From Octopus vulgaris (Eukaryota), in assembly GCA_951406725.2 (NCBI GenBank), contig OX597818.1, positions 24,242,001-24,306,000 on the forward strand: a DNA stretch of 64,000 nt, in the 5' to 3' direction. This document shows positions 16,280 to 63,074 of the stretch, piece by piece. Positions within the stretch are counted from its first letter, which is position 1. The number at the start of each line of letters is the position of its first letter. Position numbers and translations under genes: made by a program. Under the pieces are notes generated by a model that was not told the DNA's origin, made no database searches, and saw only the letters and a program-made list of their open reading frames with translations.

Positions 16280-16460
16280 ATTGTAGAAGTAGTCACAAGA
16301 GGTGGGGACAAATGAACAGAAAATAAAATATATTTCCACATGTCTGCAAGAGTTATAGCCAGGCAATAGAGGGGGCGGCTGTAATAGAAGAAGTAATCCA
16401 TAGTGAAGGCGTATGCTGATACAGATGTGTATAAATATCAGCTATGTTGGAACCTTCATT
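16280..16460 (+). promoter_or_regulatory. Core promoter of the NKY-2-like gene (TATAAAT 16430-16436, Inr-like TCATT with +1 near 16458)
   Basis: TATA box about 28 nt before an Inr-like TCATT. The whole block is conserved at 50115-50296, upstream of the paralog. Confidence 0.7.
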
Positions 16461-16580
16461 AAAAGCTCCCACACAATCTAGTAGAAAAGGGGAAAATTGC
16501 TGCAACATTGTAACAGGCATAGAAAGAAAAAAGTAACAAATTTCTGCAGTTTGATCTTAGCATCACTTCGCCTCCAATCA
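16458..16580 (+). other. Putative non-coding exon 1 (5'UTR) of the NKY-2-like gene; intron 16581-23997
   Basis: Ends at donor CA|GTAAGT (16581). A homologous exon with donor CA|GTAAGC precedes paralog copy 2. Confidence 0.68.
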
Positions 16581-17065
16581 GTAAGTTAACTTTTATTTAT
16601 TATTGAATTCAACTTGAGTTACAACAAAAACATTGCTTTCACAATTTATAACTAACATCTAGTTTTCTAGCCTGTGACTTAACAACATTTATCTCAGATA
16701 TATAAATAGCAGGATAGTTTGAAGAAAATAAGAGTAAAAAAATAAAGAGTTCAGAAAGTTGAATAGATGGAAGTTTTAGGTTATTTAGGTGACTAATTTC
16801 ATTTTGCAGTCTAGCATTTGCAGGAAAAATATCTAAACACATTTTATTATTTTTGCTACATCAAATTTTAATACAGTAAGTTTATTAAATTTTCCTAATT
16901 CAATAATGTATAAATAGTATTAAATAACTTTTTAATGAGATATGAAAAAATAAATTTACATGAATAAAATAAAAGATACATGTTTTTCTGATATACATTT
17001 AGTAAATTAATAATTTATGAGATCGCAAATATTCAATTATATGCTGCTTTCATTTTTACCTTAGG

Positions 17066-17069
<4 letters not shown>

Positions 17070-17150
<81 letters not shown>
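17070..17150. repeat. (GA)n microsatellite (many other CA, TA, GA, GAT, TAA and TATC arrays, e.g. 2868-2906, 34021-34177, 53120-53277, 59400-59458)
   Basis: Direct inspection. Confidence 0.95.
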
Positions 17151-17152
<2 letters not shown>

Positions 17153-17358
17153 TGGTTAAAAATTTAAAAACTTCCTTACAATTAAAAAAAAGTTAAAAAG
17201 CCAAAAAGAAAATTGAAACTTGGCACTTGGTATTGGATGGGTGGCTTATAACTCATTAAGTCACTGAGGCACTTCTAAGACCTGGACAACTGATCCTTAA
17301 GCTGGTAACTGACATAAACTTTGCCAAGAGCAACTCTTATCCTAAATTTATCCCCAAC

Positions 17359-17398
<40 letters not shown>

Positions 17399-19917
17399 TT
17401 TGTACACATAATATTGTTTCTAGAAAGATGAGGGGAAAGATTTAACTTGTAAGATTTCAATATGGAAGTTTTGCAGCAAGTCTTCAACTTAACATCACTC
17501 TGTTTCTTTTAATATAAAGGTTATGATAACATGGAAATGTATAAAACTTACAGCATCCATTGATACCCTACTTCAAACATATAACATCATACAAATCCAT
17601 GCACATTAAGATATTTACATTAAATGCAACTTGAATAACAATTAAAAAATAAATCCTGTTGCATATTGAGTAATAACATCTACCTAGTGACCTTTCATAT
17701 ATTGTATAACCAATAAATTTCAAATGTCTTGAAAATTAGGATAATTTGTTTCAGAAATGGACCATTACAAAAATAATTACCATTTTAAGCAATAAAGTAA
17801 TTTATCTAATTACTTTGAAATTACCTCCTTAAATAGTTTTTGACTGATCACAACAGAGTAAACAACAATATATATCATTGGTAATTATTTTAGCCACTTT
17901 AATAATCAACACATGAACTAAAAACAAATGAAGATTAAATAAAACACTGTAATGTATATGTCTATTGTTCAGCTGTTTCTGCCAGCTCACTGCTCTTCAT
18001 TACAGCAGATCAAAAAATATTAATCTTAACTCAGAATATAATACACAATAGAAAGTACATCAAAAGTAAACACTTCAAAAATATGGGCAAGAATTTTAAA
18101 GACTAAATAGAAGAGAGCTCAGGTTTGGTTGTTATGGAGAGGCATAAATCACAGCTGACTAGAAGGGAACATCAATATACAATTAATGAATAGATAATGA
18201 AAACCAGAGTATTAATTAATTGGTTAAGTACTTTAGTTTAATCATCAGACATTATCACTTAATTCACCATTAGGTATTGACAACATTGTTAATTAATCAT
18301 ACAACATTCTGTGATAATTGTGAAATATGCTTAAATTGAAATGATTGACATTTCTATAAATTCTTTCTGTCTAAAAATTCACTTATAGTGAATTTATTTA
18401 AAAATTTTAATTAGTTTTCAAGTTACAGATGGAAATATAATTTAATTTATATTGCTAACTGAAACCCCACCCTCATTCTTGGAAACACATGGACTATATT
18501 TATTGTATTTTTATCATGACTTCATGTTGACTGTGTTCTACTATAATCTCTCTCTCTCACACACATGTCCAACCCAGAGTAGGCATAAAATTAAGATGAT
18601 GAGAATAATGTGTGTGTGTGTGTATGTGTGTGTATATAGATAGATAGATAAATAGATAGAAAATTTAGATAGATAGATATACAGGTGAGTGTAGTTTATT
18701 TAAGGTTGCCAAGTACAACACACCAGCTAAATTATTGCACTCTATGCTTGTATCCAATACTTCACTAGACTATTTCACAACAATATATATACATATATTT
18801 GCTTGTGTATATGTGTGCATACACATGCACACTAGCACACACACACACAGATTTTGTGTGCATATATGAAACAAAGCAATCTAATAATTGATCACCACCA
18901 TCTGAAAGAACATGTTTGCCAATCATGTAAACTACATCTATTGATGATCTATAAATCACTGCATTTTGAGAAGAAAGTTGTGTAATAGTTGTCATAAAAG
19001 TTGCATATCTCTGGCTCCTTCAAGTCAGTTTCTGAGTTTTAGAACCTTTTCAGCTGCAAACAAATACAATCCAAACTCCGTCACACACAAAAAAAAATAC
19101 AAATATATAAAAAAAATGCATTCATATACCATAGGTTTTACTGAAGATGTAACAATTTATTTTCAGACAATAGTAGTGATTATTTAACCATAAATTAATC
19201 CTGGATGCACATGGCTTAGTGGTTAGGGTGTTGATTGTGGTTTCAATTCCTGTATTGGGTGATGCATTATGTTCTTGAGTAAAACACTTCATTTCACATA
19301 ACTCCAGTCCACCCAGTTGGCAAAAGTGAATAATCATGTGATGGACCAGCATCCCATTCAGAAGGGGAGTGCATGCACCACAGAATCTGGGAAACCAGCC
19401 TAATGAACCTATGGCTTGGGAAGGTCCTTTGAGCCTTTTTTTTTCTTTTCAGTTCTGATCAAAGACACTCCAGCTATGAACATCATGTCTTTGTATTTTC
19501 AGATCAAAAATATCTAGGACTACATTTATCCAATGTTTTCTTTTTCACTTTAAGGTAGGAAAGAGTAACTTGTAGGAAACTTTTGCTTTTATTTCTTGCA
19601 AGTGAATAGCTACATAAAATTTACATTGTTGGCTTGTAGTGATCAGTGGGTTAGCTGGTTGAAAACATTAACTTCATGGACAAAATTATAAACAGAAATA
19701 AAAATATAAGCTGCCACAAATTAAAAAAAGTAAATAGTTTCTCATTTGCATTGTTGCAGGGCCCCCAAAATTGCTTGCATAACATTTCTGGTAAACAAAC
19801 TCTATGTATTCCTGCAAAACCTCCATAAATGTTATTGGACAAAAGAAAATTTTGTAGTTTAGTGACAGAATTTCCTAGCTGCTACGATACTAAAAGGACA
19901 ATAGAAGTAAAATGTGT

Positions 19918-20151
19918 TAAGGTGGCAAATTGGCAGAAACATTAGCGCACCAGGCAAAATGCTTAGCGGTATTTCATCTGTCGCTATGTTCTGGGTTCAA
20001 ATTCCTCCGGGGTCGACTTTACCTTTCATCCTTTCAGGGTTGATTAAATAAGTACCAGTTATGCACTTGGGTCAATATAATCAACTTAATCCGTTTGTCT
20101 GTCCTTGTTTGTCCCCTCTATGTGTAGCCCCTTGTGGGCAGTAAAGAAATA
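19918..20151 (+). mobile_element. tRNA-derived SINE family C with 15-bp TSD (related copies 10530-10710, 49665-49880, 56195-56600, 58935-59148, 59458-59665)
   Basis: Boxes tggcagaaacattagc and gggttcaaattcc; core ggtcgactttacctttcatcctttcagggttgattaaataagtaccag. TSD agaagtaaaatgtgt at 19903-19917 and 20152-20166. Confidence 0.85.
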
Positions 20152-22596
20152 AGAAGTAAAATGTGTCATGTAACTCAACAAAATAAACTTTCTAAATAAG
20201 AACAAAAAATAGCTTTGACTTTCAGTGTTGTAAACAATTCAATTATTTACCTAGTACTCTTGAGAAGGGCATGAAGATTACAAACTATTTCCTTCATTTA
20301 TAAATGCTTGGCTTTGTTTCTCATAATTTATTTGCATGTAACAGCTAAGCTTGATGGTTGCAAGTTTGAAGTTCTCAACTACTAAGTGATACTTCAAAGC
20401 TTGCTACTTCCAGCTGTATTATTTCATGAAAGAACACACAGTAACAATAATTAATTCAAAATTCCAATCAACAAAGATTGCTTTATTGTTGCCATCATAG
20501 AAAAATGGATTATAAACCAAGTTGTTTGAAAAAAAACCCTTCAGCCAGTGATTCATAAAATTATTATGCAGAAAATACTCAAAATACACATCCTCAATAA
20601 AACATACAGTATTTGAACACATATGAATATCTGTTATATATTTGCAATGGTGTGTTTGATTTTTGTCAAAATTACTATCTGTATGTAGCAAAAAAGGCTC
20701 TCATAGCAAAATGAATTCAATAAATAGGACTAAACATGAAAAAAAGTACAATTCAGTCATTAGGAAGGTACACAAGAAGGCAGATTAATTTGCAATGCCT
20801 TATTTCAAATCCACAATCAGCTTACTTATTCCTCACCTAAGTAAAGGAATTAAGAAGTGATCATATTAGAGTAGACAGTGTTAGAAATACATATAAGGAA
20901 CTCCAAATGTCCAACAGAATTTATAGCCACATTCAAATATTAATCTAAAATGATTTTTCACAGGTAGTAATATTTAGTTTTGTAAACTGAAGATTTACCA
21001 GGATTGCTTAACTTCCTAGATGGATTGCATTTGCTAAGGCTGCAAAGCCACATCTCTCCCCAAACTGTTGTCTGGATTACTTAGTTTCTAAGAGAGATTA
21101 GCTTTACTATAGATGTGAAGTTACATTGATCTAAAAACTATTGGGTTTGTTTGGATTGTTCAGATTCTTAGCTGGATTAACCCTACCCACTATAGCTTTG
21201 TGTGCGTGGGGCAGAAAGTCACTACATTTATCAGGCAGTCTTCATAGCCTGAGACAAATGAGCAAAAAGTCCTCTCCAAAAGAGAGGGGAGGGTTGTTTA
21301 TGGCTAGTACATTGTGTATTAAGGCAATATTCAACAGAATAAGAGACCGAGGCAGGGCTTCACTAGTCAAAACTTCAAAGTCACTGTCAATACTATTTTT
21401 GTTGGAGAATAATAAATTTGTACTCTACAAAAAGTATTGAGTGGTCCTTCAGTTTAATGTAAAATTATTTTATCATAACTTCAAACAACAACAAACATTA
21501 ATATTATATATATATATATATAAATATACACATGTATCAATATACAAATATATAAATGTATAAGCAATGTTGGCATGAAGCTAACTGGCTTAGTTGTAGT
21601 CTGTAATTGAAAGATCAATTATTGAGTTAATGATTAACACTGTTTAAATTCAAGTATTTGTTAAAGATATTATTCTTATGCATATGTCATACAGTTTTCA
21701 GAATAAACATTATTCTATTTAATATAAAATGTGCTTTGAAACTCTTCAGATGTCCTACCAGTTGGAATCAATGATTTTATTGAATAGAATTTAATTCTAC
21801 CTTCATAAATATTTTACTAATTGGTTTAGATTATTACTAATACTTGTGTTATCATAAACGTAAATTTATTTCATTATTTATATTTATTTACTTTATTTTA
21901 CTATATACTTTATTTTAACATTGCTCCACCCCCAGCCAAAATAAAGCAGTAGTTATAAATTACTCAATAGTTATAATCAACTTTAATGACAAAATTCATT
22001 AAATACCTTAAAAAAAAAATTAGTCAACCTAAAGAAAGTTCAATAATGAAACATGCATGTAAAAAATTGCATATTTTCAGAGAATTCTCTACATTCATCT
22101 CTCTCTCTAGATTTCATAAGTTTGAATTATATGGTTTTAATGTTTTTTGTTTTTTTTTAATTAAAAATTATCTGGTGTTATGTGGTACTTGAGAAGACAG
22201 CCATCTAAAAAAACTGAGGTTCTGAAAGCAAAATGTCTATATACACAATTGAGCCTTCACCAAATTTTCTCATTTTATCTTTCCTTTAGCACCTCATTCT
22301 CTATCACTGATCTCTACATTTGCCAACAGCAGTATTCTGCTGCTGGGATCAAATGAGGGTAGAACAACATATTTCATCATCTTTCTGTGAAACCAGTTAT
22401 CTTTCTCTTCATCATTTTTACATTGTCCCTTTTCACTCACATTTTATACAGGTCACTCCATCCTTCTATACTACCAATTATCTCTCCCCCTTCACTGAAT
22501 ATGCACAAAAACACACACAAATAAACCTGATCAAATGATTGAAATACTTCATAATTAAAAAGAAACAACTGATTGGTAAAATTTGTGAAGAAACGA

Positions 22597-23008
22597 GGCG
22601 CAGGAGTGGCTGTGTGGTAAGTAGCTTGCTAACCAACCACATGGTTCCGGGTTCAGTCCCACTGCGTGGCATCTTGGGCAAGTGTCTTCTGCTATAGCCC
22701 CGGGCCGACCAATGCCTTGTGAGTGGATTTGGTAGACGGAAACTGAAAGAAGCCTGTCGTATATATGTATATATATGTATGTGTATATGTTTGTGTGTCT
22801 GTGTTTTTCCCCCTAGCATTGCTTGACAACCGATGCTGGTGTGTTTATGTCCCCATCACGTAGCGGTTCGGCAAAAGAGACCGATAGAATAAGTACTGGG
22901 CTTACAAAGAATAAGTCCTGGGGTCGATTTGCCCGACTAAAGGCGGTGCTCCAGCATGGCCGCAGTCAAATGACTGAAACAAGTAAAAGAGTAAAGAGTA
23001 AAGAGTAA
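22597..23008 (+). mobile_element. Full-length family A SINE in intron 1 of the NKY-2-like gene
   Basis: Near-identical to 7110-7523; (aagagta)n tail. Confidence 0.9.
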
Positions 23009-24015
23009 AACAATATGCATGTATGTGTGAATTATATGTATACATAAATGCGTGTGTATATGTATACATGGATGTATATATGCCTAACCCATGACAGTAG
23101 TCCCACTAATGATAGCATGGAAAATGGATGTTAAGTGATGATGATGATGATATATATATATGTGTGTGTGTGTGTGTATATATATATAAACATAAAGGCA
23201 CGTCTAGATTCATTATGAACAAGAATTGTGTACTGATGTACAGTTGATATAGTTGCAATAGAACCAGATTATAGAATAAGATGAGTATAGCTAACACGAG
23301 AGGGATAAACTGAAGTTGAGGAAAGAAGATGGATACAACATTGTCACTGTCCCAAGAGGATTCAACATGTTAGAAACTTCTTTCAGTCACTGGTGAAGTT
23401 TCTGCAGAAGGTTTCAACCCAAGTGACACACCTATACAATTAGTGCTGGTTGTCAGTTTTCCATGGGTTATTTTGACTTCAATGCACATAGCCTAATGTA
23501 TGATGTCTTGATAGCTCCAGTGCTGATCCAGTGGTTGTAGTGATGGCTGTAACTGCCAAGCAATTGTTTTATTACCAGAACGTTCCAGTCAATAAAATCC
23601 ACTACGTAAAGAACAAGAAAGATAATTAAAAATAAAGAGAAAAAATACGAGTGATAAATGATTATTTTGAAGAACGATAGCAGCAATAACTTTGGGACTG
23701 TAAATCAAAATGATAAAGCAATGGTCAAGATATATGTTTTATGAAGAAATCTGTAATAGTTTCTTTTAATTTTCCTTCCCATATTTTTTTTATTCTCTAA
23801 AACTAAAGAATAGCAGTGAGTTCAAAGTCAATTTTTTCCAACTGAAATGTCATAGTAATAAAAACACGTTTAAAAACATCACGTAAACAGAATTTTCTAG
23901 ATTCATGTTGAATCATTCCAAATTATATAATGTAATATTCAGTAATAGTTAAAATGTATGTATATATATATATATATATTTTTTTTTATATTTTCAGTTT
24001 TTATCAAAATACAAC

Positions 24016-24354
24016 ATGAAGCAGTATTTCAGCAGCCAGTTAATAATTTTCACCTTTTGTTGTATTGGAGTGATATTGTCTGGAGGAATTTGGGAAGGGA
24101 ATCATGAAAATTCTGACAAGAACTTACTATCATTGATCACCAGAGCTGCAGTAGCAACACGAGACAATGCACTTATGGCACCACCAAGTGGATATCAAGG
24201 TCGAATGCCATCATATTATATACGAACCCAAAGAGAACTCAAAAGAGAACCAAACTGGATATGGATGCCATCCCATGGCTATGTTCCTGTCCCAGAGCCT
24301 TCCAATGTTAGAAGTTCTGAAAGTCGTGGTAGCACTATTCTGAGATATGGTTAA
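24016..24354 (+). CDS. Neuropeptide precursor, NKY-2-like (neuropeptide KY / RYamide-type); predicted 34-aa amidated peptide EPNWIWMPSHGYVPVPEPSNVRSSESRGSTILRYamide
   Basis: Intact 112-aa ORF. Hydrophobic N-terminal signal (LIIFTFCCIGVILS), dibasic KR at aa 76-77 (24241-24246), C-terminal LRY-G-stop amidation signal. The WIWMP-x-x-GYV-x-VP...RYG pattern matches my recollection of annelid/mollusc NKY-2 precursors. Splice acceptor (ttttcag, 23991-23997) lies just upstream and AATAAA at 24474. Confidence 0.9.
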   Translation: MKQYFSSQLIIFTFCCIGVILSGGIWEGNHENSDKNLLSLITRAAVATRDNALMAPPSGYQGRMPSYYIRTQRELKREPNWIWMPSHGYVPVPEPSNVRSSESRGSTILRYG

Positions 24355-24473
24355 ATATGAAATCATCTTGGAATAACATGAACATTTAAGTAACTGCTAA
24401 CATTGGATAACTCTGTATTTCTCTTGTTTCTTACAATGACACATACATTTTGGATTTCACATTCTCACATAAA

Positions 24474-24479
24474 AATAAA
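24474..24479 (+). terminator. Polyadenylation signal of the NKY-2-like gene
   Basis: AATAAA 120 nt after the stop codon. The homologous position is AATAGA in copy 2 (52180) and AATAAA in copy 3 (60638). Confidence 0.55.
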
Positions 24480-27400
24480 TTTACAATACCTCTATAACAA
24501 TTTGTCTGATTCTTATTATGGCCATAAAGCAAGGTTCTTAGTTTTGTATTTGATAAATGCCATATAAGCAATTTAAAGCAAATAAACATTGTAATGAAGC
24601 TTATTTTTTAACAACAGGTTGAAAATAATAAAACTTAAAACAGAAGGTATAAATTTTGTATTTCTGTACAAAATAAGAATTATTCTTGATGTATGTGTAT
24701 ATAAAGAATTTTGCAGATATTGCATTAAAATAAACACCTAATGTGTCTCATATGCTGAAGTTTGACCACTAACATGATTTACTGAAGACAAATTGGTGCA
24801 GAAAAATAGATAAGATTTAAGTTGTCTTCAATGTGATATAGTAACACAAATAGTAGGCTGGGGTACAGTATGGATGACATGTATTGAAGATTGAAAAAAA
24901 AAAAAAAAGGTTTTTCTTTCCATACAAAAGATAGATTGATGTGTTTTCTAACACATTAAATTATTGAAAGAAGATTGAGAACTAGTTCATATTCATATGA
25001 ATTAAGATAAATATGATTGATAGTTTGTAATAGAAACTGATCTCAAGTTAAACTATACTGTGAGAATGGCTAAGAATTAGAAGCAGTAGAAGTTTTGCTC
25101 CAAGTGAAAATTGATGGAATGACTCTATGATAGTAATTGATGACTTGTTACTTGTTTTAAAAACTGAAGAAAACTGGAGGAAGAGAATGACATAGACAGA
25201 GAATAAATAGTATAACAAAAATGAGGGTGATTGTAACAAAGTGTAGCAATTATAAATAGATAATATTGAAAAATTCTTATTTCTACTGTATTCAACAATT
25301 ACCAAAAGTAAATTATTTGGAATTTGAAATTTACATTTTTTCCTGGATGTTTCTGCAAATCCACATTTATTGATAAATTTTTAAAAATAATGATAATGTA
25401 GCTCAACTAATAACATGTGAAGTAGAAGAGATGTCAATTTTCCAATAAAGACAAGTAAAACAAGAGAACTGAATGAAAGCATTTTGAATCACAATCAATT
25501 TTAGCATATTTTTAATAACAATAACTAGGGATGATCTTGCCTACCATCTATTTTCTCAGTAAACAACAAATTCAACTAGAAGGAATATATGAAGCTAAGC
25601 CAATGTCATTATATTGAAAGAAAAACATTCATTTTAAAACTTTTCTGTATTGAATGATGGTCATTATAGTGAATTCCACAATTCACTAGAATTTTAATAA
25701 AGACTTTGTGTAATTTCAGGATATTTGGGATAAGCACACTAGACTAGCAATTGACAGAAAACTAATCAATTCTTTGATCAACTACTTTTCTTTAATGATT
25801 CTTACTTCATTTGGTCTGACCAGAGTCACTCAACAATAAGCTCCAATTAACCGAAGAAAGAATTGTAAATTATATATATATCATGCTGCTCTTTTTTGAA
25901 TCATTTAAATTAATACTAAAGTTAATTGAAAGGCTATCTATTTTACAATTTCTATCTTACTTCAGAAATGTTTTCTTCTCTACCAAAGAGATTTAGAATA
26001 AATCAAAGCTGGGGTTCCCTTCTCTTCCTGTAACAGAGTTAGTTATGAATTAAGTGGCAAATAACAGTTGCAAACTACAGACTGCAAAGGTTTCCATCTT
26101 CTTCCTTAAAATTTACAGATAATATTTTTCAATACTTTTGAATAACATTACATATTATTTCACCAGTTCCTTTAAGATACTCAGCCTATTTCTAAAATTT
26201 CAATCATGCAAAAAGATATTTTTGCAAGACATGTAACCCTTAATCTTGTCCCCACTAGTTGGTTTTGGACTCTTGGTAAAAATAAAATGATTTCACTGAA
26301 TATCATTAGTTTCACACTAAAAATAAGCATTGGGGTTATTCAATAAACTATATGGCTTCCCAACAAATTTATGGCTTTGTGTCAAGGATGTGAAAAATTA
26401 GGTAAACTGATAAATTATTTCTTCAGTTCTATATTAACAATATTCATTTGAGGGAGAAGCAGTGGTGCATCAGACTAAATGCTATACAATACTACATGCA
26501 GTATCCTGTGATATTGTGTCATGAATTAGGTAAACTGACAATATCTTTCAAAATATTCTTTTACTCTTTTACTGGGGTCTGTCATTGGACTGCAACCATG
26601 CTAAGGTTCAAATTTAAGGGTTTCAGTATTTATTTCAGCTTGGTACTTATTCTATTGATCTCTGTTTGTCAACACATTAAGTTATATGAGACATAAGAGA
26701 CATAACATAAATATGCACATGCACACTTGCAATTGCAGACACATGCACACATGCATACATACATACACACACTGGACTTTTGCAGTTTCAAGCAACTGAA
26801 TTCCACTCACAAGGCACTGCTTAATAAAGTTTATAGTAAAAGACATCTGCTCATAGTGCTCTGAAGTAGGGGTGAATCCAAAACCAAAATGTTTGTGAAG
26901 CAAACTTCTTAACTACACAGCTGTGCATGCATCAATATATCAAGGAAGAAATTTAGTTAAACATTATTTGCTTCATTATTCATTATGGATGGTATCCATC
27001 AATGGGTAATTAAGCTTTATTAGTTTCCTGAAAGAAAGGAAATGTTAGATGTTGCATTCATACTTCTGAAAACAACAGTATTAGTATGTAAAGTAAAAAG
27101 GCTCAAAGTGGGAATCAAACTCAGTCGTGAGACTTACCATCTACTTTACAATGCACATTAGGTTCACCTCATTTTGTACAAAAGCTGTAGCTGAGACTCA
27201 AACTCATTCATTATATCAGTAATTTCTTCTAATTTACAATACCTACCAGGCCCATGAACCACACCCAGTAACAGCTTTTTTCACTTTTATACAGGACTCA
27301 TACTATACAATACTCATAGAGCTCATCACTTATTTGATCTTATTAACTACCTTCTTACCAACATACACTATACTTTAGTAAACTAAATAGTAGATGGGAT

Positions 27401-33613: not shown

Positions 33614-33616
<3 letters not shown>

Positions 33617-34020
33617 TCTTTTACTTGTTTCAGTCATTTGACTGTGGCCATGCTGGAGCACCGCCTTTAGTCAAGCAAATCCACCCCAAGACTTATTCTT
33701 CGTAAGCCCAGTACTTATTCTATTGGTCTCTTTTGCCAAACAGCTAAGTAATGGGAACGTAAACACACCAGCAATGGTTGTCAAGCAATGTTGGGGGGAG
33801 AAACACAGACAAACACAGACACACAAACATATACACATATATATATATACATATATACGACAGGCTTCTTTCAGTTTCTGTCTACCAAATCCACTCACAA
33901 GGCTTTGGTTGGCCCGAGGCTATAGTAGAAGACACTTGCTCAAGGTGCCACGCAGTGGGACTGAACCCAGAACCATGTGGTTGGTAAGCAAGCTACTTAC
34001 CACGCAGGCATTCCTGTGCC
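33614..34020 (-). mobile_element. Family A SINE
   Basis: Reverse complement of the 7110-7523 sequence. Confidence 0.88.
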
Positions 34021-34027
34021 TATATAT

Positions 34028-42470: not shown

Positions 42471-44174
42471 AAATTTTGTTTGTTACACCAGTGTAGTTTA
42501 TTTTTGTCAAGAAGTGTAAGTGATATATTAAAAAAAATTTTTTTATGTAAGTGGAACAAGTGATGAGAGAGTATGACCCTTGAAATGATTAATCAATTAA
42601 ATTAGCTTTTGCATTGATGCATCCACTTCTCTCAAATTTTCAATCAACTGTCTCTTGCAATTATTCTTTCCAAAGATTTTAAAAAGCATTGTTTTAGCAA
42701 TTGTGTCATTATTCACAATAGATTGCATAAACTTTCTTGTTTCTTGGTTTCTGCTTGGTTGCTTTAAGGTATGTCTACCCTTATTTTTGCCTTTATATTT
42801 CTTGTAGCTTCTTGGATTTTTGTGTCTCATTATTTTTTATCATTTGTCACATAATCTGTTTCTTCTCTCATATTAACTTTACATCTTATTTGTTCTCTAA
42901 GGCATTTTATTCACTCCATCTTATTTAACATTATATCCTATACAGCCTGTGTTGATGAGAATTCCCTCAAAAGGGAATATTGTACAGGAATTATTACATT
43001 ACAAAATTGACAACTGCTTAATGAACACATATCATTTAAATCATTCATTTCTTTTTAAAAAAGAAACATACGCTTCTTTTCTTTGTTTCTCTGCCTGCAT
43101 TTATCTGGTTTTGTATAAATGATATCCCATAGTAGTTTTTACGGAATTAATATCAACAAAAAATAAGAAAGAGATAGAAAGGTAGAGAAAAAGACAGCAT
43201 TCATAATCTTTATATCAACTATCAGTGATTGTAGAAATAGAGAAAAGGCACTGGAACTATAGTTTTACAGCAGAAAATATAGCACATGATATTAACTGAA
43301 ATGTTCAGAAACTATTGGTATTAGCAAGAATATTTAATAAGATATGGTCTACTTTGGTACATATAATGTTAACTTTCACCATGCTAATTTATCTGCTTCA
43401 TTAATCAGTATCAGTTATCACGATAATCATTGCTAGCATTATTTCAACATTTGTTTTTGATTTTTTCTCTTCCTTTGTGTCATGAGTTAGATGCTTCTTT
43501 CCAAACATCTCAAAGAAATCCAATTTTCTCACATTTTATTCATTTCATATTTTCTTTGGCTGACTTAAACTGTGAATACTTACCGTTAGAAGTACTTTTT
43601 TACTCAGCATGTGATATCCATTTACATTTTTTTTATATAACTTTGTTTAAAGCAATAGCTAATATGAGCAAATACACAAGTTCAACCTATACCAACATGA
43701 ATTAATAGAATGAGAAGATGTATGTTTATTTTAAACTGTTTTCCAGTTAATCTTTAGAAGTCTTTATGCCTAAAAATTTTGATGTGTGTTTTCTTAATGT
43801 TTATTAACAGTTTACATAACAAAGTGTGGATATGGAAATTTAAACACTTGAAACAAGATTCTGACTAGTAGGCAACAAATCTAAATATTTTATGCAACTG
43901 TAATTTAAATATTCATCAAATCTAAGTAATTCTTGTACACTTCCGTTTGGTTAATTATATGCATTGAAAATTACAATGATTTTATTCATAAAAGATAAAG
44001 AAGTTACAGGTGTGGTTGTGTGATAAGAAGCTTGCTTCACAATTACATGGTTCTGGTTTCAGTCCCACTGCACAACACCTTGAGAAAATATCTTCTACTA
44101 CAGCCTTAAGCTGACCAAAGTTTTGTGAGTGGACTTGGCAGACAGAAACAGAAAGAAGCCTGTTGCATATATAT

Positions 44175-50114: not shown

Positions 50115-50402
50115 AATAGTAGTCACAACAGGTGAGGACAAATGAAGAAAAGGAAAATATTTCTTTGCATGTCTACAAGAGTTACAGCTACGCAGTGGAG
50201 TGGCTAGATGTGATGGAATACTTAAAATAAATCCAAAGAATTTATATACATCTGGTACAGATGTATATAAATATCAGTTATGTTAGAAACTTCATTAAAG
50301 GCTCTCACATAATTTCAAAGAATAAAAGAAAATTACTGTAATTTTGCAACAAAAACGTAACAATCTTTGCAGGTTGATTTTAGCATCTCTCCACTTCAAT
50401 CA
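50115..50402 (+). promoter_or_regulatory. Duplicated promoter and non-coding exon 1 of paralog copy 2 (TATAAAT 50266, TSS ~50294, donor 50403)
   Basis: Clear alignment with 16280-16580, e.g. agtagtcacaa-aggtg-ggacaaatgaa, cagatgt-tataaatatcag-tatgtt-gaa-cttcattaaa and caatcagtaag. Confidence 0.75.
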
Positions 50403-50679
50403 GTAAGCTAACTTTTATTTAATATTGAATTCAACTTTGGTTGAAACAACAAAAATGTTATGGTTTTCATAAAAGCTCATCAAAAGCATTTACATTTTAT
50501 TATGTGATTTAAAAAAATATTTGATATATATATGTAATGATGTTCAAATAGCATAAAACTGAGAAAAAAATAATCCAGAAAGTTGAATAAGTAATAGTTC
50601 TAGATTGTGATTAATTTCATTTTGAATCTGTCATAATTATGATAATATCTTTTACTTTTTTCTTTTTTACTTATTAGAT

Positions 50680-51110
50680 CTGGAGGATGGAGTCCTGGCA
50701 TGTCCTTTGAGATTGATATGTTAACACATGCAGAAAAGATATGTGGGAAGAGAGTTGCAGAGAGTTGATGTTCAAGGAAGGAAGGAGTAGTGTGGGAGAT
50801 GAGAGGAGATGAGCAGGTCGGTAATGCCTGAGTAGAGATAACACTAACACATCATGCTCCAAGGAATAGAGGACATTATAGTAATAGAAGAAAAAACAAA
50901 GAGAAGAGACAGGAAACCTGTGAAGCAGAGGCTGGAATATACCTGAATGACTTTATGCTAGTTAATTAGGTGGCTCTTTTCTGGATGTGGTTTAGTCTGC
51001 AACACTATCCCAGAAGTGGGAGCAACATTCTATTGTGGGCATTACCTGAAATTCTTAGAGTCTCAATAATTGTTAGGGGCTGAAGGGGAGGTCAAGACAT
51101 TGAGATATGA
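50680..51110 (-). mobile_element. LINE 3' fragment inside the intron of paralog copy 2
   Basis: Minus strand QVMPTIECCSHFW; same type as 11230-12240. Confidence 0.5.
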
Positions 51111-51803
51111 TCCTAACTATCAATAGATAACAAAGATGTATTTGTTTAAAATATGCAGTGGAAAATCTTTTTGCAAGATAAAGTTTGGCACTGTCAAGAA
51201 TTTTATTACTTCATATTATTTTGCTTTCAATGAATCATGGCAAAGTATATTTGCATGACTTAAATAACAAAATATTATGTAATCATTTTCTAATATATTC
51301 ATTAAGCTTTCTATATACTGATCTAGCAAGAGGGGCCTCATATCAGTGAGGTGGGCCTGTGCACATTAATGCTGTTGAGAGGTAGGCTCCGAAACGGCAC
51401 GCATTCTCTCCTGATGACCCCATACACTTGCTGGCTTCTGGTATACAGAGTTCTCAACTGGTAGCACTTGCATGTGTAAGTTGTTTGCAAGACATCTAAG
51501 ACCTTGTGGTAGGTAGCTACAAGATGGTTAGGCATCTTGGAAAGACAAGAGGACTGCTTGGAAAGACGAGCAGACAATAGGAAAGACTATCGACACCAGG
51601 AAACACTGACAGAGGCTGCAGACTTACAATCCTTGCCTTTGTAATATATTGTAACAGATACAAATGAGAATGACAGCCCCATGATTGACCGAGAGGGGGG
51701 AGTCGAGAATCAATCAAGCTTGTTAAATAATACTGAATTATGTAATCTAATTTTAAATGATAGTTACTAAGATGTTTCTTTTTTTGTTTTTGCAATCTTT
51801 TAG

Positions 51804-52225
51804 ATCTTATCAAAGGAAATACAATATGAAGCAGTATTTGAGTAACTTGTTAATGATATTTGTCTTCTGTTGTATTGGAGTGATACTAACTGCAGAATCT
51901 TCAAATGAAGTAGAAAACTCATTGCAAAACAATGTATTTAAGGCCTAACCATTTGGATCCTACAGTCAACTGTCACCTTATTTATGAAAGTACAGAAGAG
52001 CAAAGAAGCAATCTGGTGGAGATAAAACGAAAGAATATTATTTCGTCTCAGATCCATTCCCTCAAATGGATATTTCTTGAAAAATAGACATTTAAGTAAC
52101 TGCTATCAATGGATAACTATATATTTCTCTTGATTCTTACAATGACACATACTTTTTAGATCTGACATTTCTATGTAAAAATAGAATTATAATTGCTCTA
52201 TAAAAATTTGTCTTATTTTTATTGT
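51804..52225 (+). pseudogene. NKY-2-like paralog copy 2, exon 2: truncated ORF 51826-51948 (40 aa, MKQYLSNLLMIFVFCCIGVILTAESSNEVENSLQNNVFKA*)
   Basis: AG acceptor at 51802-51803; signal peptide homologous to copy 1. TAA at 51946 and TGA at 51985, frameshifted EAIW (~EPNW), YFVSDP (~YVPVPEP), LRYG region deleted. The 3'UTR (acatttaagtaactgcta...cttacaatgacacatac) aligns with 24382-24530. Confidence 0.85.
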
Positions 52226-52935
52226 AAAGCTGTAAAGCTTGGATTTATTTATGTTATTTTACACTTATTTCATGCCATTTTGTGAGCAATAGGGGTCTTT
52301 GGTTACATGTTTCCAACAGGCCAATTACTGGTTCATTTCATTTAAGATATCAACGGTAACAAAGGGGTGTGTGTGCAATATGAAGGGAAAAAATATTACC
52401 GGTTTTCATTTAAAAGAATCAGCTTTTAGTTTTCCTTGCCAACATTCACAATATTTGCTGATATACATCAGTATAATGCACATATGGACAGGGACACACA
52501 CATACACTACAGATTTCCATACAGTTTTCATGCATCAATGTTACTGACAAATGTTATATAAATAATTTAAAATCAACCCTTTAGCATTCAGATTACTCTG
52601 TCAAATGTAATGCTTATTTATTCACATTGTTATGAATTAATCAGGTATTATCTCATAGCTTTGAGATTTTGATGATACGATTGTTGATTTTTTAGAATGA
52701 CATTGTAAGGTAGGTGTGAGAGGCTGGATGAGGCTGGCTTGAACATAAAACAAGTAGAATATTTGGATTAGGTGTGGTTGTTTAACTGCTAAAAGGGTTT
52801 GTAAATATACTTAATAAAGCATGAGAAAAAGATCACAACAAAAACAATAGAAGAAAAATTAAAACAAGAAGTATAAAATTTGATTTGCTGTCCCAAAATG
52901 AAATGTGAAGTATACTCTTTCTCTCTTTCTATTAG

Positions 52936-53280: not shown

Positions 53281-53977
53281 GGCTGGACAAAATAATGGAA
53301 ATACCTTAAGATTTCAAACAAATTAATTTTAATATGGGGTAGGACTGCCTTTGGCAGTAATTAAAACTTGAATTCTATGAGGTACAGACTTGTACAAAGG
53401 TTGAATTGTTTCCAAGGAATTTTTGTCCATTCTTCAGCTAAAGCAGTCTCCAGTTCTTGTAGTGATGATGGTGGAGGATATCGACTCCTTACCTGCTTTT
53501 TGCACCATAATTGTTCAATAATATCGAGATCTGTGGACTGTGGTGGCCAGATTAGATATTCAACTTCACAAGAATGTTTCTCGTGCCATTCAGTAACAAA
53601 TTTAGCTGAGTGAATTGGTGTATTATCATCCTGAAAGATTGCATTTTCCTCCGGAAACAGTTCCGCAACCATAGGATAAATTTGATCAGATAGAATGCTT
53701 AAATAGTCTTCACTATTAATTCTGCCATGAAGGGAAACCATTGCCTCCCCCACCCCTGATCATCACAGATTCTCCTCTATGTTTAACAGTTGGAAGAAGG
53801 CAGTCTGGGCCAAATGCTTCTTTTAGCTGTCTCAGCCGATGGTCGGAAATAAGGTAAATGATGACTCATCTGAGAAAATAACATTCTTCCACTGCTCTAG
53901 GGACCAATTCTATAGGTTTTTACTCCACTCTAAATGCTTTGCAACATTTGTTTTTTAAAATAGCGATTTTCTGATTG
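53276..53977 (-). mobile_element. Tc1-like transposon 3' remnant (DD34E transposase fragment, ORF 53361-53753)
   Basis: WKNVIFSDESSF, IFQDDNTPIH and WPPQSTDLDIIEQLW motifs; terminal caggggctggacaaaataatggaaatacc. Confidence 0.9.
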
Positions 53978-55879: not shown

Positions 55880-56200
55880 TATGAAATAGACTGGCTATGG
55901 AAAATGAAGAAGGTGAAGATAGTGCCAATTATTGTTGGGGGCCCTTAGGAACAGTATCAGAAGGCATCAAGGGGAATGTAAAGGAAATTGGAATAGAGTG
56001 CCCAGTAGAACTGTTACAAAACGTTTGCCACCTTGGCAGAGCCAGAATAATTAGAAAAGTATTAGATAGCTGAAAAGAGACGGATAGCACAGAACTGTAG
56101 GCTGCAGGTAGCAAGCCTGTTATGCATGCAAGAATCCAGGAGCTCAAAAAAAACTTGTGATAAAGAGAAATAATAATAATTATTATAATTATAATAATTC
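55880..56200 (+). mobile_element. R4/Dong-like non-LTR element 3' end (restriction-like endonuclease C-terminus)
   Basis: EIDWLWKMKKVKIVPIIVG-LGTV...LLQNVCHLGRARIIRKVLDS*, followed by a (TAA)n tail. A second RLE fragment (..IAIPSE..KIKYAELKVEIPRMWG) lies at 56630-56780. Confidence 0.7.
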
Positions 56201-57335
56201 TTTCCACTACAGGCACAAGGCCTGGAATTTTGGGGGAGGGGTGATCTATTACACTGACCCCCAAAGAGAGGCAAAGTTGATTTTACTAAAATTTGAGCTC
56301 AGAATGTAAAATTAAAAAAAATGTTGCTCATCATTTTTCTTAATACACTAACGATTCCACCAGCTCCCTACTTTACATAATTCTTTCTAATTTTACAACA
56401 GGCCAGCAACTTTGAGGGAAGTGGGCAAGATGATTACATCAACCCTAGTACTTGAGTGGTACCTTATTTTTTTGATTCCCATGGAGTGAAAAAGAGAGTT
56501 GACCTCAGCGGAATTTTGAACCAAGAACGTAAAATGCCAGAAGAAATGTTGTTAAGCATTTTGTCTGATACAGTGATAATTCTATCAGCTCACCATCTTA
56601 ATAATAACAACAAATAGAATAATTGCATACTACAGACCTAGTTTTAATAATGACATGGAAAATGAGAATGCCTTATAAGAAACATTGCAATTCCTTCAGA
56701 GAATATCATTGCAGACAAAGCAGTAAAAAAAAGATAAAATATGCTGAATTAAAAGTAGAAATACCAAGAATGTGGGGTTGCTCACCATCAAAAGTGAAAG
56801 ATATATGAGCTATCATCAGAAAATTTGAGTCAATTATGAAAAACACTATCTATCAGAACAGACATAAGTGAGCTCCAAAAATATACCATCCTTGAACAAT
56901 TCATATTCCAAGTGGAAAGAACTTGAAGGAGAGGAAGAAATGGAAAGAAGTAGTGAAGACGAATTTCAAGAGGCCAAGTTTCATGTATGAGATGACAAAG
57001 GGTTATGACAAGTGGCAAAACATTCAAGCATGGAAAAGTAAACATAAAATAATGATGACAATAGCAGTAGTGAGGAAGATCTCTACCCTTATTCTATCTC
57101 TCTCCTATCACATTACCTTTATGTTAAGACCCCCTACAATCACCTTTATTGCAACTTGGCACTCTCTCTCTCTCTCCCATTTTTGCTCCCCTATTGCTCA
57201 TTTCTCTTTCTTTCTTACTTCTCATTTCCAGTACTCTCCCTTCCATTAGTCTGTTAATCATCTATCATTATTTACATCAACAACAACATCAAAAAATACC
57301 ATAGTATTGAGAACCCAGGTTTGAAATTTCCCCAA

Positions 57336-57381
57336 GATACCTGATGAAGGCTGGAGAGTATATCAGCCGAAACGTTGTGTT
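57336..57381 (+). ncRNA. Minimal type I hammerhead ribozyme motif in a PLE-type repeat
   Basis: gatac-CTGATGA-A-ggctg[gagagtatat]cagcc-GAAA-CGTT-gtgtt. Palindromic AACGTT replaces stem III, as in PLE minimal hammerheads. Confidence 0.8.
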
Positions 57382-59422
57382 AACAACAAAGAAGATGAGG
57401 ACAAATATCCATCAAATGTAAATAATGTACATAATTCCTCATCTCTTAAATATAGAACTGAATCATCTATCAGTCTTTCTCTTTCTCTCCCCCACTCCCT
57501 ATACCACTCATGGTGCTTGTATTCAACACAGTGTTGTAGTCTATCATTCTTTTTCTCTCCTATAACTCATTCTTCTATCACTCTCCCACTCTAGTTCTCT
57601 CTCTTTGATCACCTCCTTAGTCATGTAATTTCTATCCAACCCACTTACCAACAACCACCATACAACTGTCTACTACTATCGCTATCACCCACACTCCTAT
57701 TACTCTGGTTCTCTTCTGATACTCTTCCTTCTATTGCTTTCTTGCTTTAACTCTCTTCCCACTGAGTTGAATGAGTAAGAAAGGAATGAAGAAACAGATA
57801 ATACAGAGAATAACAACTCTTTAATCTTGCCAGAGATGCAACAGACTACTGGTGCCAGTGAACAACTACATGGAAATGATGTAATGTAACAAGGACTGTT
57901 TAGTCTTGCTGGGGACAAGACAACCTCCCAAGTGCTGGTCAGTTATTGTTATATTTGTCTTTGGTTACATTAGAATAACCATCTGCTCTGGTACATAAAA
58001 ACCAACAAAGAAGTTGTGAACTGAGATTATCTGCCTGTTTCTTTTTATAGCTGCATTACCTAAATGGATGATAATTGAAATCTAGTTGGGCAATGCTGCT
58101 TCAGTTGTATCAGTGAGTAAATTACAAAACCATTATGATCATAGACCATATAGACAGTCAAGAAGCTCTATAGTCAAAATGTTTAGTTTCAAAAACTCAG
58201 TGTAAAAGACATAGGTTAAATAGAAGGGATTGACCAGATCATGCTTCAATGGATGGCCATACTAAGAGCTTGACTGCATGACTGTAAACATAATGGAATT
58301 TGATAAAGGATTCTGATGTAGAAAAGTGTGAATATATAATGTATAATGCTTTTTGTTTATCGTTTACTGGGTAGCATTAATCACTGCTATGTGATCATTA
58401 GTTAGTATCATTAAAGATAACACTTTTAGGATTGGACAGACTTAGAGTAGACACCTCAAAAAAAGTATTAGAAGTAGTAGTAGTAACAGAAATATATGAG
58501 CAAATGCTACTCATTGGTTGTCCATACATTAAAAAAATTTAAGAAAAAAAGAACTTACACATACTATCATACATACTGCTGTTAATAATATTTTCTTTTT
58601 GATTTTCAAAACACAAGTATTATCTATATATACAAACAACATCATGAATACTTCAATCAAAGATACCTTTAATGATAGCAATTATTGATGTGAGAAAAGT
58701 ACTGTTTCTTTTCTGAAGTAGTTTTAGTCTTTTATTCAAACTGGCTTTGCTAAAAAACCCAGTTTTCTCTTCATTGTTGACTTCCATCTTTTTTTTTTTT
58801 CATTAGTGATACACCTTCCCTTTAAATCTTAATCCTTAGTATTTATCTTAAACTTCAACTTCATATAAGTGAAACAGTACTGTGAACTCCAGAAGTTATT
58901 CACATGATAATTTACAATAATGATAATAATAATACTGGTTTCAAATTCTGGCGCCAGGCCAGCAATTCCAGCAGAGTGGGTAAGTCAATTACATCAACCT
59001 CAGTGCTTAACTTGTACTTATTTTATTGACCCTGAAAGGATGAAAGGCAAAGTCAACCTTGGCAGAATTTGAGCTCAGAATGTCAAGATGGATGAAATGC
59101 CGCTAAGTATTTTATCCAGTACACCAACGATTCCAGTTCACCACCTTTATAATGATATCAGAATTATTATTGTACTAAGCTCTCTTCATTTCTTTTCTTT
59201 CATTTTTCTTTATCATCTGATAGTTATAGTGTCTGAAGACAACTTTTTCAAATAAAATATTCTCTTAATAAAACATATACAACAATACAAGAAAATAATT
59301 TTCTCATTTTTTGTTGAATGATTTAAAAGCATATAATTTAAAAGTAATAATTATTTATAATTATTATTATAATAAATAGATATTTATTTAATGGCAATGG
59401 ATTATTATTATTATTATTATTA

Positions 59423-59459
<37 letters not shown>

Positions 59460-59690
59460 GGTGGTAGAATCATTAACATGATAGACAAAAAGCTTTGCAA
59501 CATTTCTTCTAGCTTTACATTTTGGGTTCAAACTTTGCCTTTCATATTTTTTTGCGGGGGGGGGGGGGGTGCAATGAAATAAATACCAGTTGAATACTAG
59601 GGTCAATGTAATCAGCTAACTCCCTTCCTTTAAAATTTCAGGCCTTTTGCCTATAGTAGAAAGGATAATAATAATAATAATAATAATAAT

Positions 59691-59729
<39 letters not shown>

Positions 59730-59802
59730 TTCCACTCTTTATCAAAATATATGAAGCAGCATTTGAGCAGCAAGTTGACAATTGTTGTTGTTTTTAGTTA
59801 TG

Positions 59803-60027
59803 TTAGCCCTTTAGCATTTAAACTGGCTGCATATGGCCAAAATATACTACCTGTTTTATGTTAAAATAGGCCAGATCTGGCCTCTTACACCTACACTACA
59901 ATGTCATTCTAATACTAAACAATCATATTGAAATACTGAAGCCAATAGATAATGCATTGTTAATTCAAAACAATGTGAGTAAATAAGCATTACATTTGAC
60001 AGAATAATCTGAATGCCTAAAGGTTAA
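59803..60027 (+). mobile_element. piggyBac-type MITE inserted in paralog copy 3 (family copies at 1570-1792 and, inverted, 52573-52800)
   Basis: tta(g)-ccctttagcatt ... aatgcctaaagg-ttaa termini; internal sequence shared with the other two copies. Confidence 0.8.
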
Positions 60028-60291
60028 TGGAAACCAATTCTTACAACAGAATCTTCAGATAAAGCTACAAAAAAACTTACTATTAAATCACAAAACAATG
60101 CACTTATCATACCATCAAGTAGATATCAATGCTGTGTGTCAGCTTATCTTTTACGTATCCAAAATAACAACAGAAAAACAAAACTTGGATGGCAATCCAT
60201 GTGATTATTATCATTCTATATGAGAGCCAAATCCTAATAGACATCATTACAGAAAAACATTTTTAAATATTTAAAAATATTTTTAAATTGT

Positions 60292-60588
60292 GGAGGCGCA
60301 ATGGCCCAGTGACTCGCAGTCGGAGAATTGTGGTTTCGATTCCCAGACTGGGAGTTGTGTGTGTTTATTGAGCGAAAACACCTAAAGCTCCACGAGGCTC
60401 TGGCAGGGGGTGGTGGCGACCCCTGTTGTACTCTTTCGCCCCAACTTTCTCTCACTCTTTCTTCCTGTTTCTTGAGTAATACTGCGATGGACTGGCAACC
60501 AGTCCAGCTCGGGGGAATGCATACACCACGGAAACCGGGCCCATGAGAGCCTGGCTAGGCTTGAAAAGGGCGCATAAATAAAAAAAAA
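60292..60588 (+). mobile_element. tRNA-derived SINE inserted in paralog copy 3
   Basis: ggaggcgcaatggcccagtg...ggtttcgattccc head, A-rich tail, and TSD-like aaaaatatttt(t)aaa at 60273-60287 and 60584-60598. Confidence 0.8.
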
Positions 60589-63074
60589 TATTTTAAAATA
60601 ACTACTGACAATGGAGGATTCCACCTTTCTGCATAGAAATAAATTTACAATACTTCTATGAAAATTTGTTTCTTATTAAGGCTGTAATCTTTCCTTTCCT
60701 CATCAACACTATTTCCACCAATCACCTTTTCTTTGTGTTTTCAGTTATTGCTCTCCTTTCTCACACTCTATTTTAACACCTCACACATCATCTTTCTCTA
60801 GATCCTCTCATATCTGCAATGATGCCCCACTCACTATATTTACCATTATGCCACTATACAATTACCTTCTCATTACTCCTACATCTTGCTCATCAAACCT
60901 TTATCTTATGGTCTATTCTTTCTGAGCTATTTTTATTTCTTCCACTTTACATCTCTCCAACTGCACCACCTTTGTTCATCACTCACTATATTCACCTATA
61001 CCCCATTTCTAACTATCTGTTACTTTCCCTTCAGAATCTTATGAAAGTATTCACTCTCTCTTCCCATCCCATGACCTACTGCTCATATCCTTGTGTTGTA
61101 TAGTGAAAATATACACCCTCTCCAGGTAAAAAGTGGTGGTAGCCAGCCATTATTTAGATGACAGAAGAAAGTTATAAGGTCGAGATGATGTGCAGAATGT
61201 GTTGATAGTCGTGTCTGTGCTGATACAGTAATTATATTGTGATATTGTGTGGTTGTTATAATGATCTAACTTGAGGATAATAACACTGTACAACTGGGGG
61301 TCATACAGTGCCAAATAGAACCATTCTATCAATGACTTCAGAATATAATAATATCTGTCAGAGTGACAACTGTCATCAAAAGACAGATACAACGATGGCA
61401 AAAGGCTGCTTTACAACACCCATTACAACCTTCTTTTTTCTCCTCCTCAGTTACACCCGGCTAACCCCATATAAAGTTGGGTAGCCATGTATTTGCTTTA
61501 CAACAAGACACCTGTGCTTGTTCCATCATACTTTAGCCTTTTGACACCTGGCACAAAGCCATCTCTTGTACAAGCAACAAGTGATTATGACAAAGAAGTG
61601 CAAGGGACATCCAGGTAGTCTGCTCAAACAGCTGTCCTTATTAGTACTTGGTGCTTTTAGATATCAGTGAATGCTTGATATAAAATGGTAACTGACAGCC
61701 ATGAAGACAATCTAGCCATTATTCCTGGTGGGATGACCAAGAGCCACGAGATGCCAGCATAAACAAGCTGTTCAAGCTGCATATTCATGCTGAGTGGAGG
61801 CTGGTAGAGGGGTACAAACCTACCACTCCAACAAGCTACATTCACTGACCAGAGTTCTCTTATGTGTACATAGATACTTGAAGCCTACCTGAGCTACCTT
61901 GAAGCCATTGAGGCAAAAATCTTCCAAAAAGAATACAGTATCACAGACACAGGATAGCAGTAAAGAAATCATATTTTTACTCTGTGGACAGTGACATTAA
62001 AGGTGAGCAAGATATTATCTACATTGACAATGTAGCTGATGATATCATGACATCCATTTTTGACACAGACAGCAATGAAACAAATTTTCCTGGTGAGTGG
62101 CTTGTATTTGAAACATGGCCTATTAAATTTCTAAATGAAAATTGTATATTGAAAGTATAAACCTTATATTTCAATTATATTTGGAAAATTGAAATACCTA
62201 CTTAAAAAAAATTGAAAATAACATGTTTAAATGTGCTTAATGACATTACTTTACATCGTTACTTTATTATTGCTGCATTATTAAAATTAATATGTAATTA
62301 AAACATTTTAAACCTTTCTAGTCTTTCATTACTTACTTCCTGCAAATATAATTTAGTGGGACATAAATTTGTTGACACCATTAATAAAATAGACAGTATT
62401 TGTTTATAGTATGAAATCACACTTCCCTTTGTGTGAATTTTCAGATAAAAACAAACATTCCTACCTCTGTCACTTAATTTTCTGATTACTTTTGTAGCAA
62501 CAATTCATGAGCAAAATTTTACTGCTTCTAGTTGGACATTAATTGATATAATCTCTGATGTAGGCGGCTGTGCATGGTAACCATTACTTATAAGCATGAT
62601 GCAACATGTATCAATATTTGGCCAACAACATGAAATCTACATCCCTAATGCAATCTAGCAAGTGTAATGAAGAGTTAATACCACAATTACAGAAAAATGT
62701 AACAACATTATAGTAATTTAAACGCTTCACAAGACATCATTACACTTGGACAATAGATAAAACTCACTTCCAGTTATGCCTTCTCAAATATACACACACA
62801 TATTTGGCTGAATCAAAAACATTAATATTTAAGTCTTTTGTATAATGTGCACAGGTAATTTTCAAGTTTAAAAGGGCTTTCTCACCAATGTTTAAATCAG
62901 GTTAGACCATGAATCAGTAGAAAAAAAATTTAGCTCTTCTACTGATTATGAAATAGGAGATAACTCTTACAGTCTTTGGGTTAAAAGGGAAGAAGAGTAA
63001 TGGGCAAGAGAAAAATATAATCAACAACTTGATAGATTACAGAATTGTGGGTAGAGGAATACATTGTTGATGGA

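Follow-up and report, generated by a model that had tools for sequence, protein, structure and literature searches.

In Lophotrochozoa the neuropeptide NKY-2 has the central consensus G[YF]WIWMPAQG, and the available text of De Oliveira et al. 2019 (PMC6425005) describes the neuropeptide families of cephalopods as not expanded in this lineage, while warning that divergent homologs might have escaped notice. The supplement of that paper places the Octopus bimaculoides protein Ocbimv22002636 beside Platynereis NKY-2, and NKY-2 in octopus is thus already on record. Here we describe a stretch of 64,000 nucleotides of Octopus vulgaris (contig OX597818.1, positions 24,242,001 to 24,306,000; hereafter the window), which carries three NKY-2-related copies on the + strand. 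Copy 1 reads as an intact two-exon NKY-2 precursor gene, while copies 2 and 3, judged by their sequence, are broken members of an offshoot family that descends from NKY-2 and is undescribed in the literature searched. The anatomy of the copies and their descent from NKY-2 are held with high confidence. Most likely this is an octopod family in birth-and-death turnover whose members would be secreted signalling peptides. Of the features of lophotrochozoan NKY-2, copy 1 shows both the WIWMP..G core and the terminal RYG, and the derived members share the signal peptide, the pro-region and the gene structure; the octopus differs in having two intact paralogs and derived members with neither core nor amidation signal.

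Two other described systems come close. In Conus, neuropeptides recruited as toxins, NKY among them, mostly take a conotoxin 5' untranslated region (UTR), and the 5'UTRs of recruits average 31% identity to the parent (PMC13542836, available text). As in the octopus family, the Conus doppelganger toxins are duplicated close to the parent gene on its own chromosome, diverge mainly in the peptide region, expand locally, and are gained and lost. The Conus recruits still resemble the neuropeptide, as far as the available text goes, whereas copy 2 keeps the promoter and exon 1 of the parent and the resemblance is lost, no NKY motif being left in the derived mature part. Replacement of the 5'UTR was not seen in copy 2, exon 1 of which is identical to NKY-2 exon 1 at 109/137 positions. 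Doppelganger venom peptides are further characterised by expression almost restricted to the venom gland and by mimicry of a neuropeptide of the prey or host. The octopod venom family SF1 (tachykinin mimics, octotensins) is likewise a tandem array restricted to octopods, in which short secreted precursors carry mature peptides that vary, present in 1-10 copies a genome and flanked by FABP and NR-GRF genes, but the available text describes it as unrelated to endogenous neuropeptides, with RRPYIL-type ends, while the derived family descends from NKY-2 (bioRxiv 10.64898/2026.02.02.703354). Neither the RRPYIL end nor the tachykinin motif was found in any derived member. In the same preprint the salivary glands of five octopods were surveyed with NKY among 33 molluscan neuropeptide queries, and its main text reports no NKY-related match.

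NKY activates sNPF-type receptors weakly, with half-maximal effective concentrations of 420 nM in Platynereis and 3.02 uM in oyster; in the available text the authors tie this activation to the amidated C-terminus and leave the physiological NKY receptor unsettled (bioRxiv 10.1101/712687). Such cross-talk would likely be lost in the derived peptides, since the amidated C-terminus is missing. Searches of the literature by family name, accession and motif, which left most subscription papers outside, gave no description of the second paralog, the array or the derived family. No match to the family was found in the available supplements of PMC9712504, PMC7693380, PMC12607849, PMC9815951 and PMC11525497, and NKY is not mentioned in the available text of a venom-mimicry review and of a second cephalopod venom preprint.

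Copy 1 consists of the following parts.

16288..16580, + strand: non-coding exon 1 preceded by the promoter (TATA-like box at 16430), 77-80% identical to 50118-50402
16581..23997, + strand: intron of 7.4 kb, repeat-rich, donor GT at 16581, GT...AG ends
24016..24354, + strand: open coding sequence of a 112-residue NKY-2 precursor, as read from the sequence
24355..24632, + strand: 3'UTR with AATAAA at 24474, 24581 and 24627, partly matching copy 2

By eye, the precursor has a predicted signal peptide (about residues 1-22), a pro-region, a KR site and the end LRY-G, so that the predicted product after KR is a 34-residue amidated peptide. The WIWMP..G core is present, with SH replacing AQ and PN replacing G[YF], as in Ocbimv22002636 (P0014), and the C-terminal Tyr is followed by the amide-donor Gly and the stop. 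The diagnostic N-terminal Lys of NKY-2 belongs in copy 1 to the KR site, and cleavage after KR would give an N-terminal Glu; the oyster NKY used in receptor assays likewise starts without Lys (bioRxiv 10.1101/712687, available text). The precursor is identical to an annotated O. vulgaris 'hypothetical protein' on the 147.5-Mb contig, is 85% identical to an Argonauta protein and is also related to bivalve and limpet proteins with a WIWMPAQG core, while a Pfam search returned 0 families. An earlier note on this DNA had named copy 1 as NKY-2-like, and the core, the LRYG end and the relation to the listed O. bimaculoides protein bear this out. The public model P0002 splices the end of exon 1 (16580) to 23998, both sites being canonical, and the Logan protein P0016, from a related NKY-2 gene, spans the exon junction. 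P0002 (151 residues) also carries 39 extra residues, in frame through exon 1 (16539-16580, 23998-24015), before the signal peptide; this extension is likely a mis-chosen start.

Comparison with O. bimaculoides revealed a second paralog. P0014 is identical to copy 1 at 103/112 residues, while P0015, identical at 111/112 and sister to copy 1 at 97/97, is the O. bimaculoides ortholog; in O. vulgaris, P0014 has its counterpart (107/112 identical) in the C-terminal half of P0013, a fused model. Since P0015 pairs with copy 1 and P0014 with the C-terminal half of P0013, both species carry two intact NKY-2 paralogs each. P0013 itself (CAI9722527.1, 209 residues, O. vulgaris, outside the window) combines a derived member, which takes up residues 1-63, with exon 1 of NKY-2 in translation and the second NKY-2, the last being 107/112 identical to copy 1 and to P0014; the model is probably an annotation error joining two genes. 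The order of the accessions CAI9722525 and CAI9722527 suggests that the array continues beside the window.

Copy 2 reads as a whole-gene duplicate of the NKY-2 gene with two in-frame stops.

50118..50402, + strand: homologue of promoter (TATA-like box at 50266) and exon 1, donor GT intact at 50403
50403..51803, + strand: intron of 1.4 kb, AG acceptor intact
51826..52080, + strand: coding remnant of 84 codons in a single frame, stops at codon 41 (51946) and codon 54 (51985)
52088..52223, + strand: 3'UTR homologue, by alignment to copy 1

Global alignment of copies 1 and 2 region by region, with 200 shuffles each, gave identities of 116/150 in the promoter, 109/137 in exon 1, 160/210 and 56/84 at the 5' and 3' ends of the intron, 54/69 in the signal, 52/75 in the pro-region and 114/136 in the 3'UTR (24382-24517 against 52088-52223), none of these scores being reached by any shuffle. 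In the mature region 40/65 positions were identical, a score reached by 3/200 shuffles. Descent of the derived lineage from NKY-2 is thus indicated by DNA homology in promoter, exon 1, intron, signal, pro-region and 3'UTR. The 3'UTR is the best-kept block between the two copies, above the identity of synonymous sites, and may reflect a regulatory element or gene conversion. The frame of copy 2 can yield 40 residues only, up to the first stop, and neither AATAAA nor ATTAAA was found 3' of it in 52080-52400. The open-frame protein P0020 is identical to copy 2 at 56/81 residues, is its sister at 100/99 and is open at both stop positions. Rescue of the stops by adenosine-to-inosine editing was considered and is unsupported; both stops would need editing. 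No RNA run is among the runs listed for the copy 2 stretch, which is not counted as evidence.

Copy 3 is an exon-2 remnant with two insertions.

59728..60682, + strand: exon-2 remnant, ATG at 59751, frameshift near 60172, stop at 60221
59807..60023, strand not assigned: miniature inverted-repeat transposable element (MITE) of 217 bp splitting the signal codons, with inverted ends and TTAG/TTAA flanks
60290..60588, + strand: insertion in the 3'UTR resembling a short interspersed nuclear element (SINE), with an A-rich tail and a duplicated AT-rich target site

The remnant aligns with copy 1 over three discontinuous blocks (E 1e-8, 1e-7 and 2e-11). No promoter or exon 1 for it was found in the window, and its acceptor is lost, CAC standing in place of CAG. 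In the distal 3'UTR copy 3 is nearer to copy 1 (56/67) than to copy 2 (46/67). The MITE, which we take to be piggyBac-like, belongs to a 220-bp element with inverted ends and TTAA-like flanks that has three copies in the window (59807-60023, about 1570-1790 and 52577-52800). The anatomy of the 60290..60588 insertion points to a SINE; tRNA and Rfam searches gave no match within it.

The earlier note had described three same-strand copies with a common start context, signal, pro-region and 3'UTR, one intact and two decaying. Three ATGAAGCAG starts do lie on the + strand, at 24016, 51826 and 59751, while a fourth, on the - strand at 43401, is without homology; the quoted peptide motifs are all present, and among the three copies the KR...LRYG end is confined to copy 1, the 112-residue precursor of which ends in this way. 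The common parts were likewise recovered, with the upstream promoter and exon 1 in copies 1 and 2 only. Alignment with copy 1 is significant at the nucleotide level, beyond all 200 shuffles for copy 2 outside the mature region and at E 1e-7 to 2e-11 for copy 3. The copies diverge by 16-33% even in their best-kept parts, and 0.84-1.00 of the words of the copy 2 stretch are present in 9 of the 24 runs listed, 6 of these 9 (from 4 studies) not being marked as a possible source. The copies are therefore real and not an assembly duplication, being too diverged and, for the copy 2 stretch, recurring in runs not marked as a possible source. No copy beyond the three was found in the window by blastn (word size 6) or by tblastn with five proteins.

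Relatives of the broken copies with open frames exist outside the window. An exhaustive search with copy 1 among 1.84 billion proteins returned 9 proteins, including P0010 of O. bimaculoides (91 residues, uncharacterised, E 2.9e-4), which has a signal peptide of the copy 2 type and no NKY-2 core. A profile search with P0010, the N-terminus of P0013, copy 2 (X at the stops) and a piece of copy 3 gave 14 candidates, of which four are family proteins: P0010; P0019, which is O. vulgaris CAI9722653.1 on the same contig as the annotated protein of copy 1; and the Logan proteins P0020 and P0021, from two assemblies, both with open frames. P0022, the RefSeq model LOC118763463 of O. sinensis, is a member of the P0019 cluster. 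A search with copy 2 alone (X at the stops) returned no candidate and is uninformative, because it also missed the relatives found later. The expectation that further and intact copies would be found beyond the window and in sister species is thus borne out in O. vulgaris, O. sinensis and O. bimaculoides.

In the phylogenetic tree of 19 rows, for which the tool warned that long branches meet, all 8 derived rows lay on one side of a single branch (support 99/97, stem 0.67) and formed four lineages: copy 3; copy 2 with P0020; P0021 with the N-terminus of P0013; and P0010 with P0019 and P0022. The claim that copies 2 and 3 are closer to each other thus holds in so far as both belong to the same clade, while their sister pairing was neither shown nor rejected (approximately unbiased (AU) test, p 0.227). 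The proposed expansion of a neuropeptide family stands as tandem duplication, but it concerns mostly the derived family, with its four tree lineages, plus one extra true NKY-2 paralog. In all five derived rows compared, the signal peptide shares 14-17 of 22 positions with octopod NKY-2 and 8-9 with the decapodiform-like P0004, which argues for an octopod origin of the family.

The WIWMP core is absent from copy 2, copy 3, P0010, P0019, P0020, P0021 and P0022, and the C-terminal RY-G amide signal is absent from copies 2 and 3 and from the open-frame relatives, the frames ending 10-15 residues earlier. Since the open-frame relatives lack both, the lineage had become a different peptide before copies 2 and 3 broke; the two copies are indeed broken, but they are not decaying NKY-2 genes as had been supposed. 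The aligned derived members have a pro-region about 12-15 residues shorter than that of NKY-2. The RR site is present in 5/5 open-frame members and in copy 2, and 24-30 residues remain after it. The predicted products of the five open-frame members contain 6-8 Asp/Glu against 1-4 Lys/Arg, and four of the five have one Cys. This single Cys could pair chains in several of the derived peptides, and Tyr among the acidic residues could be sulfated. In the ESM Atlas the matches of P0010 were assorted neuropeptide precursors, all under 0.9, with a model pLDDT (predicted local distance difference test) of 0.39, and were not used.

The derived family changes much faster than NKY-2, for the most part in the region after RR. 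The two NKY-2 pairs of O. vulgaris and O. bimaculoides are identical at 218/224 residues against 67/91 in the derived pair P0019/P0010 (p 1e-9). Within the derived pair the signal is identical at 21/23, the pro-region at 30/38 and the mature part after RR at 16/30 (signal against mature, p 0.003). In the comparison of copies 1 and 2 the signal has a proportion of nonsynonymous differences (pN) of 0.14 against a proportion of synonymous differences (pS) of 0.54, and the mature DNA is identical at 25/57 positions against 499/633 (79%) in non-coding blocks picked by BLAST (p 5e-8), a background that overstates neutral identity because synonymous sites are as diverged. Positive selection (omega above 1) on the mature region was considered for its low identity and dropped, since the synonymous sites are equally diverged. 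Comparison of copies 1 and 2 thus shows the signal to be constrained, while for the old peptide no constraint could be detected.

That a neuropeptide gene duplicates and its peptide then diverges is a route known from other animals. A single tandem duplication of NKY-2 in an octopod ancestor would have founded the family, the duplicate keeping the promoter, exon structure and signal peptide and losing the receptor-facing amidated end. The signal peptide would direct the precursor into secretion, and a convertase would cleave after RR and free an acidic peptide of 24-30 residues. Expression would likely be neurosecretory and not in the venom gland, given that copy 2 retains both the promoter and exon 1 of NKY-2 and that the main text of the salivary survey reports no NKY match. 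The family would then have multiplied, with members gained and lost species by species, some open and others dying. That the offshoots are predicted secreted, acidic, non-amidated peptides, probably signalling via a target other than the NKY-2 receptor, is in our judgement an even bet. A bolder form, in which the duplicates became an octopod-only family of acidic, non-amidated ligands under positive selection, with a receptor of its own and a species-specific signalling role in brain, reproduction or venom, is put forward tentatively, the odds leaning somewhat against it.

Several observations weigh against a signalling family. In the mature region of copies 1 and 2 pN (0.53) is below pS (0.68), pS for signal and pro-region together is 0.42, and in copy 2 against P0020 the difference between signal (19/23) and mature part (14/23) is not significant (p 0.19). 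The AU test (p 0.217) does not reject a tree in which the derived clade falls outside the whole of cephalopod NKY-2, long branches meet in the 19-row tree, and P0019 and P0010 are taken to be orthologs from their place in the tree (92/92, not starred). The N-terminus of P0013, a third O. vulgaris copy, departs from the family alignment after RR. The models P0019 and P0022 have upstream pieces unlike NKY-2 exon 1, so retention of the promoter may not hold for all members. Both derived copies in the window (2/2) are broken, and protein searches return open frames only, which biases them towards apparent function.

One alternative view, which we consider unlikely, is that the derived copies are non-functional or barely constrained and that the open frames are survivors of neutral decay caught by gene predictors. 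It accords with a pN that is near pS or lower in the pro-region and the mature part, with the broken state of both derived window copies and with the five open-frame matches, which are predictions without names. In a neutral simulation frames remained open in 44/300 cases at 24 residue changes, the level of P0019/P0010, and in 10/300 at 40; the simulation used substitutions only, and survival is overstated because indels are ignored. On the other hand, in three separate sub-lineages the frames are open, are much alike in length and retain signal peptide, RR and a like C-terminal pattern, the signal shows the low pN given above, and the plainly decaying copy 3 shows two insertions, a frameshift and a stop. 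Several lineages are open, and function is therefore favoured, with the caveat that protein databases show open frames only.

Reproductive secretions evolve fast, with a kept signal peptide and turnover, and the offshoots might be exocrine reproductive peptides or pheromones of testis, spermatophore or oviducal gland, changing quickly between species. The predicted mature part does change fast and species-specifically while the signal peptide is kept, and there is turnover between close species, copy 2 being broken and P0020 open; retention of a neuropeptide gene's promoter by copy 2 speaks against this possibility, which we regard as improbable. Equally improbable are salivary-gland (venom) peptides recruited from NKY-2 like NKY in some cone snails: the kept signal and UTR, variable mature part, nearness to the parent and local duplication resemble the Conus recruits (PMC13542836, available text), and 27/44 cephalopod salivary superfamilies are without known function, but the salivary survey, as far as its available text goes, reports mimics of stanniocalcin, luqin, myosuppressin, tachykinin and neurotensin and none of NKY despite BLASTp with known neuropeptides (bioRxiv 10.64898/2026.02.02.703354), the family motifs are absent from the searched supplements of the salivary proteome and peptide papers PMC7693380 and PMC11525497, and the 5' exon of copy 2 is not swapped.

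Other repeats and fragments were noted in the window. A 410-bp dispersed repeat has young copies, 89-94% identical, at 7109-7523, 22596-23000 (in the intron of copy 1) and 33614-34022, together with many older fragments. There is a near-perfect (97%) 299-bp direct repeat (8088-8386 and 9023-9321) and a 330-bp imperfect palindrome at 12539-12870. Short open frames at 6597-7880 (- strand), 11632-11967 and 53361-53759 (- strand) resemble decayed pieces of retroelements and of Tc1/mariner transposases. At 63240-63358 (- strand) lies a 5S rRNA-like sequence that scores 51.9 bits over the full length of the model. Some of its parts also occur in repeat fragments at other places in the window, so that it may represent a pseudogene or else a repeat derived from 5S.

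The locus qualifies the published view that the complexity of cephalopods arose with no lineage-specific neuropeptide expansions (PMC6425005), and presents a case of the missed divergent homolog in which one can trace, at the DNA level, the parent gene together with an extra paralog, offshoots with open frames, and pseudogenes. It provides named candidates, LOC118763463, CAI9722653.1 and A0A0L8HDN1, for a tissue read-out from existing RNA data. If the offshoots prove silent, the locus would be an ordinary birth-and-death cluster; if they do form a new ligand family, cephalopods would provide a direct example of neuropeptide innovation within one lineage, which the standard survey did not detect. 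It also shows how an orphan secreted peptide can derive from an ancient neuropeptide.

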